Counted from the first letter of the stretch, positions 23,539 to 54,121 are shown. The stretch is 64,000 nucleotides of DNA from Escherichia coli (GCF_965641715.1 NZ_OZ282453.1), one strand, 5' to 3'. Made by a program: numbers and translations. The notes: a model not told the origin generated them from the sequence alone.

Positions 23539-23901
23539 TGGTGGAGCTGGCGGGAGTTGAACCCGCGTCCGAAATTCCTACATCCTCGGTACTACATGCT
23601 TAGTCAGTCTTTACATTCGCTTGCCAGCTGCGGACGGACACGCCACTAACAAACTAGCCTGATTAAGTTTTAACGCTTCAACCCCAGGCAGGGCTTCCAC
23701 GCGATCTCTTTTGGGTTTGACCTCTCTTGATCCCCGTCCTAAGAGCGGAGGCTAGGGAGAGAGGGCTCTAAGCAGGTTATTAAGCTGCTAAAGCGTAGTT
23801 TTCGTCGTTTGCGACTATTTTTTGCGGCTTTTTACGAGGCCAACCGCCCCTCGGCATGCACCTTGGGTTTCGCAAATCCCGTCGAATCCAGAATCAGCCC
23901 C
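23539..23901 (-). ncRNA. ssrA: tmRNA (SsrA), 363 nt
   Basis: Reverse complement matches the recalled E. coli tmRNA from 5' GGGGCUGAUUCUGGAUUCGACGGG... through the tag-encoding region to the 3' ...GGUUCAACUCCCGCCAGCUCCACCA. Confidence 0.97.
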
Positions 23902-41951: not shown

Positions 41952-42974
41952 TTATGTGGATGAAATGTGGATGCCTCCTTTTAACGGATTAAGTGAAATT
42001 GCATCCTGGAGGAAATCAGGAGCGAGGTGCGCATAGGTCATAGTTTGCTGGATCGTGGCGTGCCCCATAATTCGCTGGAGCGTAAGTATATTTCCTCCAT
42101 TAATCATAAAGTGAGCTGCAAAGGTATGGCGTAGAACATGTACTGCCTGCCCTTTTGGTAGATCAGGTTTAACACTGCGAAGCACCTTGCGATATTCCTC
42201 ATAATTGACGTCAAACAAAAGGCCGGATTTCTTTGTTTTGATCTCGCTAACAACTTCATCAGAGACAGGAATAATTCGAACTTTTCCGTTTTTAGTTTTG
42301 TTAAACGTCACGCGGTTATTGATGATGTGTTCCGCGCGCAGATTTTTCGCTTCTCCCCATCTCGCACCAGTACTGAGACAAAGTAGCGTAATCCGCCGGG
42401 CATCACCGCTTACTGCATCCAGTAATTTGGCAATTTCTTCCGTGGTGAGATACGTCATTTCGGGTGATTTTCGTTTCAAAGAGGGGAGGGCGCGGAGCGG
42501 ATTTTCTCCGTGAAATTCCCCGGCATTTGCCAGGAGTGTAAACATTCCTCCGAGATCCGACTCATCACGCCGAACAGTAGACTCTTTTACTCCCAAAGAT
42601 AAACGGGAGCTTCGATAAGCGGCCATGAAACGAGCATTAATCTGGCTAACCCTTGGATCATTCATTTCTTTGATGATTTTTTTCAACCTGGTTAGAACGC
42701 CGTTAGCATATGGCTTATTGCGTCCACCCAATTCCCACCATAACGGAAGCAGATCTGAGAGATGACGTTGCTCTGTTGGCTTTTCAAGCCATTCCTTATC
42801 GTGCATGTGGCTGAGAACATAACGCTCAAAGGCCACTGCATCTGCCTTTTTCTTAAAAATCCGCTGAATCCGACGTCCACTTCGGCCACGCGGTCTAACA
42901 TCCACTTTATACCGTCCACCATCGAGTGCTTTAATTGCCATTGGCAAGCCCTCCGGTGAAACGAGGAAAGACAT
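41952..42974 (-). CDS. int: P2-type tyrosine integrase
   Basis: 340 aa ORF; ...RLKAEHIINNRVTFNKTKNGKVRIIPVSDEV...HVLRHTFAAHFMINGGNILTLQRIMGHATIQQTMTYAHLAPDFLQDAISLNPL closely resembles P2 Int as recalled (catalytic R...HxxR...Y). Confidence 0.93.
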   Translation of the reverse strand: MSFLVSPEGLPMAIKALDGGRYKVDVRPRGRSGRRIQRIFKKKADAVAFERYVLSHMHDKEWLEKPTEQRHLSDLLPLWWELGGRNKPYANGVLTRLKKIIKEMNDPRVSQINARFMAAYRSSRLSLGVKESTVRRDESDLGGMFTLLANAGEFHGENPLRALPSLKRKSPEMTYLTTEEIAKLLDAVSGDARRITLLCLSTGARWGEAKNLRAEHIINNRVTFNKTKNGKVRIIPVSDEVVSEIKTKKSGLLFDVNYEEYRKVLRSVKPDLPKGQAVHVLRHTFAAHFMINGGNILTLQRIMGHATIQQTMTYAHLAPDFLQDAISLNPLKGGIHISST

Positions 42975-47046: not shown

Positions 47047-49869
47047 ATGACGGCAGAGTACATCAGGGACTGGCAACAACCGCGCCACGCAGTGGGACGT
47101 GAAGGAACGGGGATCCCCGTTCCTGAATCCGCGCTTTCCTCCTGGCTGGATGCCTACCGGGCAGAGAACGAGCGCCGCCAGGAAATGGCTGATGCGGCGT
47201 TCTCCGCCACGCCGCTGGGCAACCTGATTAATAAAAGCCTGGATGCACAGGAAAAACAGGACAAAACCATCACACTGGCAGGAGACGCCAGAAAACAGGT
47301 ACGCGGTGCGGTGGATGAAGCCATGGCCTCGCTGCGCCTGCTGCCGTCCTATCTGCGCGATCCGCTTATTCGCCACCTCTCCTTCCTGCGCAAAAAACAG
47401 GAAGCCGATCGCCGGAAAGGCAAAAAGAGCTGGCAGGCTGAACGCTACGCGCGCGGAACCCTGCGCAAAATATTCGAACGTCTGGACCGCACCGACCACC
47501 GCTGGCTGACACCGGGTTATCGCTCCCTTGCCGGACGCGAACGCCTGGATGATTTGCTTTACCTGCCGCAGCTCAACAAGCACCAGATACAGACGCTGGC
47601 CACCATGACGGCGGCGATGTTCAGCAGCACCTTCGAAAAACTCTGCGATGGCTTTGGCGCGACTGATGGCGAGCTGACCATGGATGTAACGCTGAAGGCG
47701 TATCAGATGCTGGCCCGCATGGCGTTACACCTGCACGCCATGCCTCCGCATTATGATGCACTGACAACAGACAAAGACCGGAGGAACGAACCGGACACGG
47801 AGCTGCTGCCGGGCGCAATCCTTCGCCTGACCTGTGCGGAATGGTGGAAACGCAAACTGTGGCTGTTACGTTGCGAGTGGCGGGAAGAACAACTCCGCGC
47901 CGCCTGTCTGGTTTCCAGAAAAACATCGCCCTATCTGAGCCAGGACGCGTTAAGCGAGTTTCGCGCACAGCGCGAGAAAACACGCGATTTCCTGAAAAGT
48001 TTCATGCTGGAAAACGAAGACGGGTTCACGATTGATCTCGAGACGGTGTATTACGCGGGAGTAAGTAACCCGGTTCATCGTAAGGCAGAAATGATGGCCA
48101 CCATGAAGGGGCTGGAACTTCTGGCCGAAGCCCGTGGCGACAAAGCGGTGTTTCTGACTGTCACCTGCCCGTCAAAATACCACGCCACAACAGAGAACGG
48201 TCATCCGAATCCCAAATGGAACGGGGCCACCATGCGCGACTCCAGCGATTACCTGGTTAACACGTTTTTTGCGGCGGTCCGCAAGAAACTGAACCGCGAC
48301 GGCCTGCGCTGGTATGGCATCCGCACGGTGGAGCCTCACCATGACGGCACCGTGCACTGGCATATGATGGTCTTTGCTCATCCGGAAGAAATCGACACCA
48401 TTGTGTCCCACACCCGCGATATTGCCATTCAGGAAGATCGTCACGAGCTGGGTGATGATATTACCCCACGCTTTAAGGCGGAGTACGTCGACGGCTCAAA
48501 AGGCACACCGACCAGCTACATCGCCACCTACATCGGGAAAAACCTGGACAGCCGTGCCGTGGATGGCATCGACCCGAAAACGGGCAAGCCACGCGTTGAC
48601 CACGAAACCGGAAAATCAATGGCCGAGAGCGTGGAACGCGCCATCGGCTGGGCGCGCCTTCATCGGGTCCGCCAGTTCCAGTTCTTTGGCATCCCCTCCC
48701 GTCAGGTGTGGCGTGAACTGCGCCGCCTTGCCAGCCAGATGGCTCGCAACCCGGAAGGACCGCAACGGCTGAAGGATGACGCAATGGACGCGGTTCTTGC
48801 TGCCGCTGATGCCGGATGTTTTGCCACCTACATAGAGAAACAGGGCGGCGTACTTGTTCCACGCAAGGACTACCTGATTCGCACCGCCTACGACCTCGCA
48901 GATGAGCTGAACGATTACGGTGAACAGAGCGTACAGATTTACGGGATCTGGTCACCGCTCATCGGGGAGTCTTCCCGCGTATGCACGCATCCGGACAACT
49001 GGAAGCTGGTAAGACGCAAACCGGAAGCGGAAGACAGCGCCCGCGAAAATGGTTTTGACCTTCAGGGCGGCCCTGCCGCCCCTTGGACTCGTGGCAATAA
49101 CTGTCCCCGTGTACAGGAAACAGGCAACAGCGGGACAGAACAGTCGAAAGAACGGCCAGCACCGTGGCCGCAGCTTCCTGACGGCGTTGACGTGAACGAA
49201 TGGATGCGCTCACTGAAACGGCACGAACGCCGGGCGCTGATGCGTTCGCTTCGTGACAAACAGGCAAAAAACAGCAGTGATGAAATGCAGAGCTGGACAC
49301 AGAGCCGCAAACAGCCACGGCCTTTGCCTGATAACCACGAATTACTCGCTAAAGAATGGCGGGAGTCTGCTGAATCTCTCGGCCTGCATATCGGTGAACA
49401 ACAGATGCAGCACCTGTTACGGGGCGGCAGTCTGTACGTTGACGGCAGCATCATTGCACCGCAGGGATTTGAAATTGTACGCAAACCGGATACCCGCCCG
49501 GACAGCCGAATCACGCAGCTCTGGCAGCGCCTGAGCCGTAATCATGGCGTAAGCAGCACGGAGATCCGCCATAACCCGGTCGCCAGCTATCTGGCACAGC
49601 TGGGGGCATCAGACCCTGAAGCCGCCGCACGCCTGGCATCCACACTTCAGCAGGACCAGAACACCATGAAAACACCCGTTACCGTGCTTTCTGACATGCT
49701 GCGCGCCATCCGCGACGCAGAGCACGCACAGAGAATCAGTGAAACCACTGAACGCGCCAGCCGCAAAGCAGACCTGCTGCGGGGTGGCCTGACCAGTGGA
49801 AACAAAAAACAGACAGAAACGGGATTCACAAATCCCATAAATGAGCAAAAAACGTGCCGCGATATATGA
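47047..49869 (+). CDS. P2 gpA-like rolling-circle replication initiator endonuclease (940 aa)
   Basis: HUH-type motif region ...GIRTVEPHHDGTVHWHMMVFAHPEE...; position after the early ORFs matches P2 gene A; unusually long C-terminal region. Confidence 0.85.
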   Translation: MTAEYIRDWQQPRHAVGREGTGIPVPESALSSWLDAYRAENERRQEMADAAFSATPLGNLINKSLDAQEKQDKTITLAGDARKQVRGAVDEAMASLRLLPSYLRDPLIRHLSFLRKKQEADRRKGKKSWQAERYARGTLRKIFERLDRTDHRWLTPGYRSLAGRERLDDLLYLPQLNKHQIQTLATMTAAMFSSTFEKLCDGFGATDGELTMDVTLKAYQMLARMALHLHAMPPHYDALTTDKDRRNEPDTELLPGAILRLTCAEWWKRKLWLLRCEWREEQLRAACLVSRKTSPYLSQDALSEFRAQREKTRDFLKSFMLENEDGFTIDLETVYYAGVSNPVHRKAEMMATMKGLELLAEARGDKAVFLTVTCPSKYHATTENGHPNPKWNGATMRDSSDYLVNTFFAAVRKKLNRDGLRWYGIRTVEPHHDGTVHWHMMVFAHPEEIDTIVSHTRDIAIQEDRHELGDDITPRFKAEYVDGSKGTPTSYIATYIGKNLDSRAVDGIDPKTGKPRVDHETGKSMAESVERAIGWARLHRVRQFQFFGIPSRQVWRELRRLASQMARNPEGPQRLKDDAMDAVLAAADAGCFATYIEKQGGVLVPRKDYLIRTAYDLADELNDYGEQSVQIYGIWSPLIGESSRVCTHPDNWKLVRRKPEAEDSARENGFDLQGGPAAPWTRGNNCPRVQETGNSGTEQSKERPAPWPQLPDGVDVNEWMRSLKRHERRALMRSLRDKQAKNSSDEMQSWTQSRKQPRPLPDNHELLAKEWRESAESLGLHIGEQQMQHLLRGGSLYVDGSIIAPQGFEIVRKPDTRPDSRITQLWQRLSRNHGVSSTEIRHNPVASYLAQLGASDPEAAARLASTLQQDQNTMKTPVTVLSDMLRAIRDAEHAQRISETTERASRKADLLRGGLTSGNKKQTETGFTNPINEQKTCRDI

Positions 49870-49945
49870 AGCGCGCACAAAACAGGCAAAAGCGGGATTT
49901 AAAAATCCTGTAAACGATTAATTAATCAACATAAGGAAAAGCGAC

Positions 49946-50905
49946 ATGAAAATTTGTATCGACGACGGCTCCACCAACATCAAGCTGGCATGGACTGAGA
50001 ACGGCGAACGCCGCAACGCCATCAGCCCGAACAGCTTCAAGTCGGAATGGTCTGCGCCGTTCGGTGGCTCGCAGCCCGCGAACTACATGCTTGATGGCGT
50101 GCGCTATGGTTTTGATCCGGTCAGCGATCGCTTTGTCCAGACGACCGACACGCAATACCAGTACAGCGATGTGAATGTCATTGCCATTCATCACGCGCTG
50201 GTCAAATCAGGCATCACGCCACAGGAGGTGGATGTGGTTGTCACCCTGCCATTGAGCGAGTATTTCGACACAAACGCACAGCCGGACATGGCCAACATCA
50301 GCCGCAAAAAAGCGAACGTTATGCGCCCGGTGGAGTACCAGAACGGCGAAACATTCACTATCCGTAACGTACGGGTTATGCCTGAATCCATTCCGGCTGG
50401 CTTTAAAGCACTGGCTGACATGAGTCCGCTTGAATCCCTGCTGATTGTGGATTTGGGCGGAACCACACTGGATGTGGCAAAGGTTCAGGGGCAACTGGCA
50501 GGTATCAGCCAGGTGTTTTGCGATCCACACGTAGGCGTTTCCCTGATGGCCGATGCCGTACTGTCGGTGATGGCCACTAACGGTATGCGTATCAGTCACC
50601 ACATCGCCAATACCATTATCGAACATCGCCATGATGAAGCCTGGTTGCGCCAGCACATCCACAATGACGCGCATTACGCCAGCCTGATGGCGGTTATTCG
50701 TGAAAAGGAAGAAACACTGAAACAACGCGTGATCCGCGCGCTGGCGGTTTTTTCGGGTTACGGGCGGGTGATGGTTGTCGGTGGCGGGGCGGAGATTGTG
50801 GCACCCGCTATCCGCGAAGCCTGCGGAGTTAATGCGACTTTCATCGCGGACGGGGTGCCACAGTTTGCTCTGGTTAATGGGCTGTACGCAATGGACAAGG
50901 AGTAA
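49946..50905 (+). CDS. ParM/StbA-like actin-fold ATPase (319 aa)
   Basis: N-terminus MKICIDDGSTNIKLAWTE...ISPNSFKSEW...YQYSDVNVIAIHHALVKSGI...LIVDLGGTTLDVA... matches the recalled plasmid R1 ParM phosphate-1/connect/phosphate-2 motifs; strong RBS. Confidence 0.8.
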   Translation: MKICIDDGSTNIKLAWTENGERRNAISPNSFKSEWSAPFGGSQPANYMLDGVRYGFDPVSDRFVQTTDTQYQYSDVNVIAIHHALVKSGITPQEVDVVVTLPLSEYFDTNAQPDMANISRKKANVMRPVEYQNGETFTIRNVRVMPESIPAGFKALADMSPLESLLIVDLGGTTLDVAKVQGQLAGISQVFCDPHVGVSLMADAVLSVMATNGMRISHHIANTIIEHRHDEAWLRQHIHNDAHYASLMAVIREKEETLKQRVIRALAVFSGYGRVMVVGGGAEIVAPAIREACGVNATFIADGVPQFALVNGLYAMDKE

Positions 50906-50909
50906 ACCA

Positions 50910-51221
50910 ATGACGACTCCAACCAGACGGATAAGTTTCTATCTGAAGCCCGCCGCCGTCAAGAACGAAGGTGAAGCATGCGCCTGGCTGGACAGCCTTA
51001 CACCAGAAGCGCGCAAAAGCGGCCAACGCGTGGCTTTTCTGGCCGGGCTGGCACTTCTGAAAATGAATCCGGCAGAGGCTTACCGACTGGCTGCATGGGC
51101 TGATGATGAAGCGTTATCAGTGACACAAACCAGGACAGAACGCCCCGCGTCACAGCCAGTATCAACCGCACAGATAACCAGTCAGATGGCCGGAAATATC
51201 CGGGCGTTATTTCCCGAATAA
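50910..51221 (+). CDS. ParR-like small DNA-binding protein (103 aa), partner of the ParM-like ATPase
   Basis: ORF 50775-51221 with probable start MTTPTRRISFYLKPAAV...; RRISFYLKP...RVAFLAGLALLKMNP...NIRALFPE parallels recalled R1 ParR (RRTIAFKLNP...RAALTAGLALYRQDP...ILRSLFPKE); 4-nt gap after parM-like gene. Confidence 0.7.
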   Translation: MTTPTRRISFYLKPAAVKNEGEACAWLDSLTPEARKSGQRVAFLAGLALLKMNPAEAYRLAAWADDEALSVTQTRTERPASQPVSTAQITSQMAGNIRALFPE

Positions 51222-51284
51222 CACAACATCAGGGCGCATCCGCCCTGATGACTTTAACCCGGGAACATAAACAAGGGGGACACA

Positions 51285-51620
51285 ATGCAACGCATTGACA
51301 GAGAAAAAGCGCAGCGACTGATTGAGCGGATGGAAGCGCTGGCGAAAGAAGAAAATGTCAACATCCAAAAAATAGCTGAATGTGGCCAGATAGTTCTTCG
51401 TCGTGAAAAAGACCTCAAACAACTGATGTCTGGCGAAACCAGCAAAACATGGACTTCAGGTGAGGAGACGATTTATTGCAGCTTCTGCAATAAATCCCAG
51501 TACGAAGTCACAAAGGTGATTGCCGGACCGTCTGTTTACATCTGCAATGAGTGCGTTGATTTGTGCAATGAAGTTATCAGGAGAGAAGTGACAGACCATG
51601 AAGAAAAAACGCATGAATGA
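51285..51620 (+). CDS. Small protein with C-terminal ClpX-type C4 zinc-binding domain (111 aa)
   Basis: [40 protein letters not shown] is near-identical in pattern to the ClpX N-terminal ZBD ([39 protein letters not shown] as recalled); N-terminal 60 aa predicted helical; own AAGGGGGA RBS. Confidence 0.8.
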
Positions 51621-51786: not shown

Positions 51787-52194
51787 TTAAATATAATCTT
51801 CTTCGTAGTCGCTGATTAATTCATTGCCATAATCAGACAGCAATTTCAAAGCAAAGGTAACTTCCTCAAGGGTAGCTATCCCCATTGCTGAAAACACCGT
51901 TAATTTAACCAGCAGCAGGGAGTTTGAAAGTTCGGAAGAGTTCATCATTAAAAATATTGATGCAGCCTGAAAAGCTGTGCGTTTATTCCCATCATGAAAG
52001 GCATGAGCCTTGGCTATACCAATCAAATACATAGCAGCCAGAGCATGAATATCATCAACCCCTTCATAGTAGTGTAGTGTCCTGACGCGATTTAAAGCAC
52101 CTTCAAGTAGCCCGTCATTGGCATTTCCGCTCTGGGGTAAAGTTTCAGCATGGATACGTTCTACTTGTTCTTTTGACAAAAACACTATGTCCAT
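51787..52194 (-). CDS. Doc-like (Fic/Doc family) toxin
   Basis: 135 aa ORF with Doc-type Fic motif HAFHDGNKRTA (HxFx[D/N]GNKR); start overlaps stop of upstream antitoxin-like gene. Confidence 0.8.
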   Translation of the reverse strand: MDIVFLSKEQVERIHAETLPQSGNANDGLLEGALNRVRTLHYYEGVDDIHALAAMYLIGIAKAHAFHDGNKRTAFQAASIFLMMNSSELSNSLLLVKLTVFSAMGIATLEEVTFALKLLSDYGNELISDYEEDYI

Positions 52195-52550
52195 CAGTTA
52201 TCCTCAAGCTTTTTAATGATATCCGCATGTTTTTCTCTTGTACGCTTCATTGCATCTTCAAAAGACAATCCTTTTTTTCTCTGTGCGACAAGAGCTGGAT
52301 GACGTTTTTCCAGATCTCTCACTGCATTTATTAAGAGTGGTTGCTTCATTTTGTTTATTTGATCCCGCAGTTTTTTGGTTTTGCCAAGGACAGCCCGTAT
52401 TTCAGGACTAAGATCAGAACCAGCAAGAACAACATCCTTCCCTCCCTGCGCCGTGATAACGACACTGCCACCGGAAGAAAGGTAATCCAGAATTTCACTC
52501 AGGTTCTCACGAAATTCATCATCAGTTACAGTTTTCATATTCATTTCCAT
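52194..52550 (-). CDS. Phd/YefM-like antitoxin with extended C-terminal region (118 aa; start ambiguous among three ATGs)
   Basis: N-terminal MKTVTDDEFRENLSEILDYLSSGGSVVITAQGGKDVVLAGSDL resembles the Phd/YefM fold; basic C-terminal 60 aa; overlaps doc-like gene (ATGA arrangement). Confidence 0.7.
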   Translation of the reverse strand: MEMNMKTVTDDEFRENLSEILDYLSSGGSVVITAQGGKDVVLAGSDLSPEIRAVLGKTKKLRDQINKMKQPLLINAVRDLEKRHPALVAQRKKGLSFEDAMKRTREKHADIIKKLEDN

Positions 52551-53074: not shown

Positions 53075-54121
53075 TCAGGATGTGGGCTGGGTGTCCAGCA
53101 GTGCGTAAGGGTTAAAGCGGATCACCTCTTCGCCAAGCCAGTCATTGATATGCTTCATGGCCTCCATGACGGGCATCAGCTCGTTAATTGCGTAAACCCG
53201 CGCTGCCTTCTCCACATCACCAAACGCACTTTTTTCGCCCGGCATCGCCCCCATCAGTTGCGGCGGAACGCGGTGCGCAGCCAGCACATCATCACGGGAT
53301 GCCGCCTTAACATTCATGAACTCATCCTTTGCGGTGATCTGCTGGAACGGCAAAATTTGCACACCTTCTTTGCCCCCGTTGGGCGCGTGAATGAGCACGT
53401 TTTTAAATGCACCACCACCACGCGCACCCTGTAGCGTTTCCTTCAGGGAGTCCATGCTTTCGCGGTTTACCTGCGCTGCACCGATGTAGATGATGCACCC
53501 GGCGTGGGATCCATTGTCGTAGTACAGTTTTCTGAACATGTCCGCCGAATGAGACAGGCTGGCCGAGAGTAATGCGCCAAGATATTCCGGCATGCCGTAA
53601 ATTTCCTGGTTAATGTCCGGATTCATCAGGTGGCACACTTTGCCAGGGCGAAACTGAAACGCGTCCTTGCCATCCTGCACATACCACCATGATTCAAGAT
53701 CGCTTCCGCGTCGCATGTATTTCGCCAGTGCGTGCCGTAATTTAAGTGGTTCGCCGAGCATATTGCTCCGAAGCTCAAGGAATGCGTTACCGAACACAAA
53801 CCAGTCCAGCGCCAGCGCCGAGAAATCCTGCCGGGAAAGCAGCGGGTGCGGGATGTAGCAACCGAGCAATACATTGCGCTTAAAGTAAAGCGCAGACTGA
53901 TGCCAGGACGTTTGCCGGGCGGCTCTTGCCAGACCGTACCAGTCCACCGGGGTTTCATACCACCGCCCGTTATCAGCACAGTACATATTGTCCAGCAGGT
54001 CATGCCCGGTCAGGCGGTAAGGACCATCAAATGTGAATGCACTGAGCGACGATTCTTTCCTGAGCGCATCAGCGAGATCAATGCGTGAACTCATGCGCAC
54101 TTTTTTATTTTTTCTGCTCAT
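53075..54121 (-). CDS. Portal protein (P2 gpQ-like)
   Basis: 348 aa ORF in the conserved position and orientation of P2 Q; start overlaps the stop of the terminase gene. Confidence 0.9.
   Translation of the reverse strand: MSRKNKKVRMSSRIDLADALRKESSLSAFTFDGPYRLTGHDLLDNMYCADNGRWYETPVDWYGLARAARQTSWHQSALYFKRNVLLGCYIPHPLLSRQDFSALALDWFVFGNAFLELRSNMLGEPLKLRHALAKYMRRGSDLESWWYVQDGKDAFQFRPGKVCHLMNPDINQEIYGMPEYLGALLSASLSHSADMFRKLYYDNGSHAGCIIYIGAAQVNRESMDSLKETLQGARGGGAFKNVLIHAPNGGKEGVQILPFQQITAKDEFMNVKAASRDDVLAAHRVPPQLMGAMPGEKSAFGDVEKAARVYAINELMPVMEAMKHINDWLGEEVIRFNPYALLDTQPTS

Follow-up and report, generated by a model that had tools for sequence, protein, structure and literature searches.

A selectively maintained ParMRC-type cassette behind the replication gene of a P88-like Escherichia coli prophage and its possible action on the circular phage genome

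Why should a prophage that resides in the chromosome carry a plasmid-type partition system? The question is raised by two adjacent genes, parM and parR, in a 64,000-nt stretch of Escherichia coli DNA (GCF_965641715.1, NZ_OZ282453.1; the whole stretch is referred to as the window), where they lie within a P2-family prophage of the P88-like type (genus Xuanwuvirus, Peduoviridae) integrated beside pheA (Table 1). An earlier, sequence-only reading of the window had recognized a type II ParM/ParR partition pair inside an integrated P2-like prophage, and this identification is borne out by Pfam, by the Protein Data Bank (PDB), by alignment to plasmid R100 and by the prophage gene context. The same reading saw no obvious need for partition in an integrated prophage, and suggested either that the phage can persist as an episome or that the actin-like filament has been co-opted, for positioning phage DNA or for excluding other phages. 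We propose, with a probability of roughly 0.55, that a complete and selectively maintained R1-type ParMRC cassette acts on the extrachromosomal circular phage genome, segregating or positioning the circles. As a sequence finding the cassette is ordinary, correctly annotated and noted earlier with published speculation on its role, and the episome idea is likewise already in print. What is added here is a candidate centromere, evidence for selection, the assignment of the pair to the phage backbone, its probable expression with the early operon, and the link to precedents among integrative conjugative elements (ICEs) and in the prophage CGP3.

The 319-residue product of parM contains every motif that had been quoted for it (DDGSTNIKL, SPNSF, YSDVNVIAIHHAL, and DLGGTTLDV). 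In Pfam, residues 1–157 match StbA_N (E 5.6e-82) and residues 159–316 match the ParM C-terminal domain PF21523 (E 5.4e-68), and crystallized R1 ParM (1mwk and related PDB entries) matches residues 2–316 with an E value of 7.5e-94. Because the similarity to the solved R1 structure is this high, the predicted actin fold of ParM is not in doubt. R100 served as the plasmid reference for the R1-type alignments. The phage protein is 47% identical to R100 ParM over the full length (pairwise alignment), and four segments are identical between the two, i.e., the phosphate-1 motif DDGSTNIK, the segment PESIPAG (containing the counterpart of R1 E148, the catalytic glutamate), the phosphate-2 motif DLGGTTLD (R1 D170), and the adenosine loop GGGAE. 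The key ATP-binding residues are thus retained, with the nucleotide-binding and catalytic motifs all intact. NCBIfam gave just a sub-threshold match of ParM to PRTRC_D (21.5 bits vs a cut-off of 214.8), which was disregarded.

The start codon of parR follows the parM stop codon after 4 nt, as the sequence-only reading had stated, and opens a reading frame of 103 codons. The junction reads GAC AAG GAG TAA ACCA ATG, in which the AAGGAG ribosome-binding site overlaps the final codons of parM; by this layout, the two genes are predicted to be translationally coupled, the usual arrangement for such operons. ParR matches the Pfam family Plasmid_stab_B (E 2e-24). A sequence search of the PDB with ParR returned no match, and structure prediction gives a fold that matches pB171 ParR. 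Alignment with the ParR proteins of R100, pCTX-M3 and D6 divides the protein into three parts: an N-terminal strand, TRRISFYLKP, which is invariant in the alignment, a linker that is hypervariable and of low confidence, and a C-terminal tail. The tail motif, (K/A)xNI(R/Q)xxFPE, is kept in all ParR alleles, with an invariant N96, and lines up with the C-termini of the R100 (KKNAMKLIN) and pCTX-M3 (RKNVQHLFPDDD) proteins. In R1, the C-terminal part of ParR is the part that binds ParM, as seen in the structure of R1 ParM with a ParR peptide.

ParR varies far more than its partner. Among the alleles of loci L004–L083 and P0001–P0084, the identity to the window ParR ranges from about 41 to 100% and several linker classes occur, vs at least 94% identity for the adjacent ParM. 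Around half of the E. coli matches stop at nucleotide 1019 of the query, which is the start of the variable part of parR. Two-copy genomes include one that carries different ParR classes and another in which the two ParR are identical. The subfamily is restricted to elements of Escherichia, Shigella, Cronobacter, Citrobacter, Salmonella and Hafnia. In ordinary plasmids, ParR was not found by tblastn at E<=1e-3, and the matches in plasmid records are P88-like elements only.

Two 42-nt direct repeats, 73 nt apart and 79% identical, straddle the stop codon of gpA, the gene of the replication endonuclease, and lie directly upstream of parM. Each repeat unit holds a 20-bp palindrome, and box 1 follows CGGGAT-N6-ATCCCG with one mismatch. 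In most relatives the palindrome is a perfect ACGGGAT-N6-ATCCCGT, and the window copies have one or two arm mismatches each. Across 61 distinct upstream sequences, the box arms are nearly invariant and the central 4–6 nt vary. Relatives from Hafnia and Cronobacter keep both repeat units though the 3' end of gpA and the inter-repeat spacer diverge; in the Hafnia phages, whose ParM is 94% identical, both units retain their palindromes as well as their A/C-rich tracts. No further boxes beyond these two were found in the window or in a fetched 30-kb stretch of the P88 genome. In one locus (L025; IMG/VR UViG 2657245439_000011), exactly one 73-bp repeat unit has been lost, apparently through recombination between the two 42-nt repeats, leaving a single box and an altered gpA 3' end.

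The repeats occupy the position typical of parC in type II systems, and the identical 73-bp spacing separates the repeat clusters upstream of parM in the IncL/M plasmid pCTX-M3. In the srpC centromere of the SXT/R391 elements, four half-sites (four 13-bp repeats) suffice (PMC4489591). For these three reasons, we regard the two phage repeats as a probable minimal parC, which ParR would bind. Covariation between ParR class and box was also sought, and the invariant ParR N-terminus together with the invariant box arms left nothing to compare.

The pair is present in 1306 of 5426 complete E. coli genomes (~24%), at 1453 places, of which 1451 are chromosomal. Over its 1276 nt, it is 94–98% identical to the counterparts in P88, PhiR44_2, P884B11, Citrobacter phiSM, Chuche, 520873 and 503458, all of which annotate it as ParM or partition protein. 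The RefSeq names are 'plasmid segregation protein ParM' and 'plasmid partitioning/stability family protein'. parM encodes the full 319 residues in 81 of 81 loci and has a dN/dS of 0.067 over 68 alleles; purifying selection on it is strong. Of the 81 loci, 79 have an intact parR, the exceptions being a copy cut off where its contig stops and a copy shortened to 79 residues, and the parR dN/dS of 0.25–0.31 is driven by the linker.

Upstream of the pair, the gap between gpA and parM is constant at 76 nt in 71 of 78 loci, and the matching 3' allele of gpA occurs in 1354 genomes vs 1306 for parMR. Downstream, the interval between parR and the portal gene holds 24 unrelated cargo clusters in 46 loci. 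Since the spacing to gpA is constant, the count of the gpA allele similar, and the cargo variable only downstream of parR, parMR behaves as a backbone component belonging to the replication module of the P88 lineage, and the true hotspot starts after the hairpin that follows parR. The stem of this hairpin, CAGGGCG...CGCCCTG, recurs after parR with different loops in many relatives that have unrelated downstream cargo, and marks where the constant parMR module gives way to variable cargo; it may serve as an mRNA 3' stabilizer, as a terminator, or as a recombination boundary of the hotspot. An entry in the table of Rousset et al., 'StbA + AAA + Peptidase_S8 + Plasmid_stab_B', reads as an insertion between parM and parR; this was examined and rejected, the extra genes actually lying downstream of parR.

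The last recognized gene of the early operon is gpA, whose 3' end overlaps the first candidate centromere repeat. In the interval between gpA and parM, a consensus scan detected no sigma-70 match of at least 9/12, and no terminator was found after gpA. The best match in a lenient promoter scan, TTTAAA-17-ATTAAT (8/12), overlaps box 2, and its -35 element is not conserved in relatives. Because parMR is co-oriented behind gpA with neither a promoter nor a terminator detectable in between, it probably forms the tail of the early lytic operon and is transcribed through from gpA.

The prophage is normally integrated and the cassette is apparently expressed with the early lytic operon, and for these reasons the most likely substrate is the circular phage genome. 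As 1451 of the 1453 E. coli copies are chromosomal, the role would be to segregate or position circles that exist transiently, after infection and before integration, or after induction and excision. P2-type replication yields monomeric circles. Upon infection or induction, the early operon would express gpA, ParM and ParR, and rolling-circle replication by gpA would generate such monomeric circular genomes. ParR dimers would bind the two palindrome-bearing repeats around the end of gpA, the conserved C-terminal tail of ParR would capture the ends of ATP-bound ParM filaments, and the growing filaments, capped by ParR/parC, would push the parC-bearing circles apart. Three of these steps are inferred, namely that ParR binds the repeats, when the genes are expressed, and that the circular form is the target. 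The benefit might be the supply of phage DNA to both daughter cells, which would make the establishment of lysogeny likelier and the loss of excised copies rarer, and/or a placement of replicating genomes that favors efficient replication and packaging. P88 is described as inducible by mitomycin C (PMC5285337).

The earlier view that partition would meet no obvious need in an integrated prophage is overstated, as srpMRC of SXT/R391 (PMC4489591) and AlpAC of CGP3 (PMC4446434) both act on excised circles. Of the two forms of co-option that had been envisaged, the positioning of phage DNA fits the anatomy of the locus better than an episome does, whereas the exclusion of other phages finds no support. 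Several points nevertheless weigh against a role on the circles. The copy number of circles in a lytic phage is high, and it is hard to see what such a phage would gain from a segregation machine of the low-copy kind. The cassette is absent from P2 itself and from most P2-like phages. The candidate centromere comprises two boxes (four half-sites), vs ten iterons in R1 parC. The missing recognizable promoter is weak negative evidence, and a low, autoregulated expression in the lysogen is possible, given the 8/12 match at box 2. Our search of the literature on P88, Xuanwuvirus, CP-933T, ParMRC with prophage, and ParM with Peduoviridae found no functional study of the cassette, and the supplement of a ciprofloxacin transcriptome/proteome paper has no ParM entry.

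A facultative phage-plasmid, in which ParMRC allows stable low-copy persistence as an alternative to integration, was put forward as a suggestion by Rousset et al. 2022 (PMC9122126), who found the cassette in about a quarter of P2-like phages. The search for circular episomal forms that the sequence-only reading had called for gave one complete record, PLSDB pZ1323PEC0009-2 (34,461 bp, circular), which is an entire P88-like genome with integrase and parMR. To this record and the published remark may be added that D6, the only cultured phage other than the P88-like phages with an R1-type ParM, is a P1-like plasmid prophage, and that the window locus also holds Phd/Doc, the classic addiction module of plasmid prophages. 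Set against these are the integrase, intact both here and in pZ1323PEC0009-2, the failure of plasmid replicon typing to assign any replicon to that record, and an identical phage that sits in the chromosome of a sister strain from the same project. The remaining PLSDB matches to parMR comprise a single linear fragment, together with several copies that form part of very large records; with one complete circular P88-like genome, a comparison for enrichment of parMR-positive phages among the extrachromosomal records was uninformative. A further P2-like circle deposited as a plasmid, pENTAS02, shows that such records arise without parMR, and Phd/Doc is a variable cargo (3 of 46 loci) with no linkage to parMR. 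Replication of the P2 gpA type is a lytic, rolling-circle mode that is repressed in lysogens, which also counts against a plasmid state. Members of the phage-plasmid class (P1, N15, D6) are extrachromosomal, have a plasmid replicon and usually have no integrase, which does not describe this prophage. The circular records leave a plasmid state neither established nor excluded, and the state observed is overwhelmingly the integrated one; support for a stably persisting episome is poor, and we consider the phage-plasmid explanation unlikely. A more speculative proposal, to which we also give a low probability, is that P88-like phages are widespread dual-lifestyle elements, in which ParMRC gives the excised or pre-integration genome a heritable, plasmid-like carrier state over several generations and the hypervariable ParR alleles act as incompatibility groups among co-resident P2-family prophages. 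If this were true, the line between integrating phage and phage-plasmid would be blurred for an element found in about a quarter of E. coli genomes.

The diversity of ParR alongside a nearly constant ParM is a pattern that diversification driven by incompatibility could give, and the cassette lies within the gpA–gpQ locus that Rousset et al. defined as a defence hotspot; one may therefore ask whether it excludes or destabilizes other elements, through partition incompatibility with plasmids or kindred phages whose centromeres are similar, or through anti-phage defence as for other genes of the hotspot. We hold this to be improbable. A PADLOC scan of ParM, ParR, gpA and their neighbours gave nothing for the pair, and weak Fic/Doc-like hits for the Doc toxin only. 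The cassette stays constant while the hotspot cargo downstream turns over, and the N-terminal strand of ParR that would read the DNA, like the box arms, is invariant across ParR classes, which argues that specificity has not diversified. The absence of this ParR from ordinary plasmids makes plasmid centromeres unlikely targets, and co-resident copies with identical ParR occur. That nearly all copies are chromosomal could instead suggest that the cassette segregates the integrated prophage region or the host chromosome, as a factor of host fitness; in the paper on Citrobacter phiSM, the gene appears as a 'fitness' factor. Action of ParMRC on a chromosome arm has no known mechanism or precedent, the insertion sites differ (the pheA side here, the pdxB side in RM10740) so that no particular locus gains, and the cassette goes with the replication module of the phage and not with any host locus, all of which renders a chromosomal role very improbable. 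The P2 family at large dispenses with the cassette, as would be expected of a non-functional relic of an old recombination between plasmid and phage; this reading of parMR as a decaying passenger is effectively refuted by the selection data, i.e., the low dN/dS of parM and its full length in every locus, and the motifs, tail and repeats are kept across Escherichia, Cronobacter and Hafnia.

The gene context agrees with an integrated P2-like prophage, as had been claimed: the host genes aroF-tyrA-pheA lie directly left of the integrase, and integrase, repressor, gpA and portal are present. The window stops short of the right-hand junction, and integration is directly seen at the attL side. gpA of P2 is ~760 residues long. 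The extra C-terminal region of the P88-like gpA (PHROG 6857) is lineage-specific and ends in the first candidate centromere repeat; the counterparts of this gene are annotated 'replication endonuclease' in P88 and in RefSeq genomes. The first gene after parR, also found in P88 (SF19_gp19), encodes a protein whose C-terminal ~48 residues correspond to the N-terminal C4 zinc-binding domain of ClpX standing alone, the AAA+ module being absent; as speculation, it might act as a decoy or competitor for adaptor and substrate recognition by ClpX. Farther upstream in the window, a low-GC stretch at ~13000-18000 (35–39% GC) surrounds a tRNA-Met gene (15668-15743); it may represent a further genomic island, situated upstream of the prophage. 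The gene for tmRNA, ssrA, is located at 23539-23901 on the minus strand.

Table 1. Features of the prophage locus in the window (positions counted from the first nucleotide)
Feature	Position	Strand	Description and evidence
Tyrosine integrase	41952-42974	-	Intact; adjoins aroF-tyrA-pheA
C-type repressor			Between integrase and early genes
Gene at Cox position			No NCBIfam match here; counterpart annotated Cox family in the related RM10740 prophage
gpA	47047..49869	+	940 aa; P2-type rolling-circle replication endonuclease; PHROG 91 'nicking at origin of replication', E 3.7e-275
Candidate parC repeat unit 1	49803..49844		A/C-rich tract and palindromic box 1 (ACGGGATTCACAAATCCCAT, 49819-49838); inside last gpA codons
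Candidate parC repeat unit 2	49876..49917		A/C-rich tract and palindromic box 2 (GCGGGATTTAAAAATCCTGT, 49892-49911); in 76-nt gpA–parM intergenic region
parM	49946..50905	+	319 aa; actin-fold segregation ATPase; Pfam, PDB match, R100 alignment
parR	50910..51221	+	103 aa; ribbon-helix-helix centromere-binding adaptor; variable linker, conserved C-terminal tail NIRALFPE
GC-rich hairpin	51227..51250		CATCAGGGCG-GATG-CGCCCTGATG; inverted repeat directly 3' of parR; terminator-like match on - strand
ClpX-zinc-finger protein	51285-51620	+	111 aa; clpX at positions 6-53, NCBIfam E 3.7e-13; PHROG 6797
Doc (death-on-curing) toxin and Phd-like antitoxin	51787-52194 and 52194-52550	both -	PHROG 577 / 375; NCBIfam DOC_P1
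Portal gene	53075-54121	-	Downstream of Doc/Phd; terminase genes alongside

Among known systems, the closest are the copies in P88, P884B11, Citrobacter phiSM and ~1300 complete E. coli genomes, which contain the same cassette at 94–100% nucleotide identity and from which the window differs only in the insertion site and in the Phd/Doc and ClpX-zinc-finger cargo. The carriers include O157:H7, ST131 and many livestock strains; if the cassette does act on the circles, lysogenization efficiency and prophage stability in pathogenic E. coli could be affected. D6, whose record itself cites 'phage P88 StbA', likewise encodes an R1-type ParM (47.5% identity), and a small gene resembling parR comes next; unlike the integrated prophage, it is a 91-kb extrachromosomal, P1-like plasmid prophage, which plainly requires partition, and its upstream repeats are of the TCTCAAAT type.

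With the ParMRC system of R1 and R100 (StbA/StbB/parC), the phage cassette shares the full-length similarity of ParM and all of its nucleotide-binding motifs, the Pfam family, ribbon-helix-helix fold and C-terminal tail motif of ParR, and, if the candidate parC is counted, the order parC-parM-parR with predicted translational coupling. The replicon is different, an integrating P2-family phage in place of a low-copy plasmid. The plasmid parC consists of two sets of five direct, A/C-rich 11-bp iterons flanking the promoter, whereas the candidate centromere of the phage has two 42-nt palindrome units and no clear autoregulated promoter between the repeats, and the phage ParR is too diverged for tblastn at the threshold used to reach ordinary plasmids.

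The precedents for function come from two normally integrated elements. SrpMRC of the SXT/R391 ICEs stabilizes the excised, replicating form, its expression being confined to induction (Carraro et al. 2015, PMC4489591), and it works together with a relaxase-driven (HUH-nickase) rolling-circle replicon and a toxin–antitoxin (TA) system (PMC4489591). Like the phage cassette, it is an actin-type partition system with a small centromere and a TA module nearby. The likeness is one of functional analogy rather than of homology family: the architecture is shared, and the timing and the effect on circles would be carried over to the phage by analogy. The relationship of SrpM and SrpR to R1 ParM and ParR is a distant one, whereas the phage proteins are close homologues of the R1 type; moreover, SXT/R391 is a conjugative element, not a virus, and the function of srpMRC is experimental, while the phage cassette is known from its sequence. 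In the CGP3 prophage of Corynebacterium glutamicum, induction of AlpAC occurs early, and the circular phage DNA depends on it for efficient replication (Donovan et al. 2015, PMC4446434). There, too, an integrated prophage encodes an actin-like protein and a DNA-binding adaptor that acts on repeats upstream of the operon (alpS); AlpC belongs to a distant actin-like family, the host is an actinobacterium, the gene order is alpA-alpC, and homology to the P88 pair is not expected. If the P88-like cassette indeed segregates or positions circles, these phages would be the third independent integrating element with an actin-type machine, after the SXT/R391 ICEs and CGP3, and the first whose ParM is truly of the R1 type, in what is the best available genetic system.

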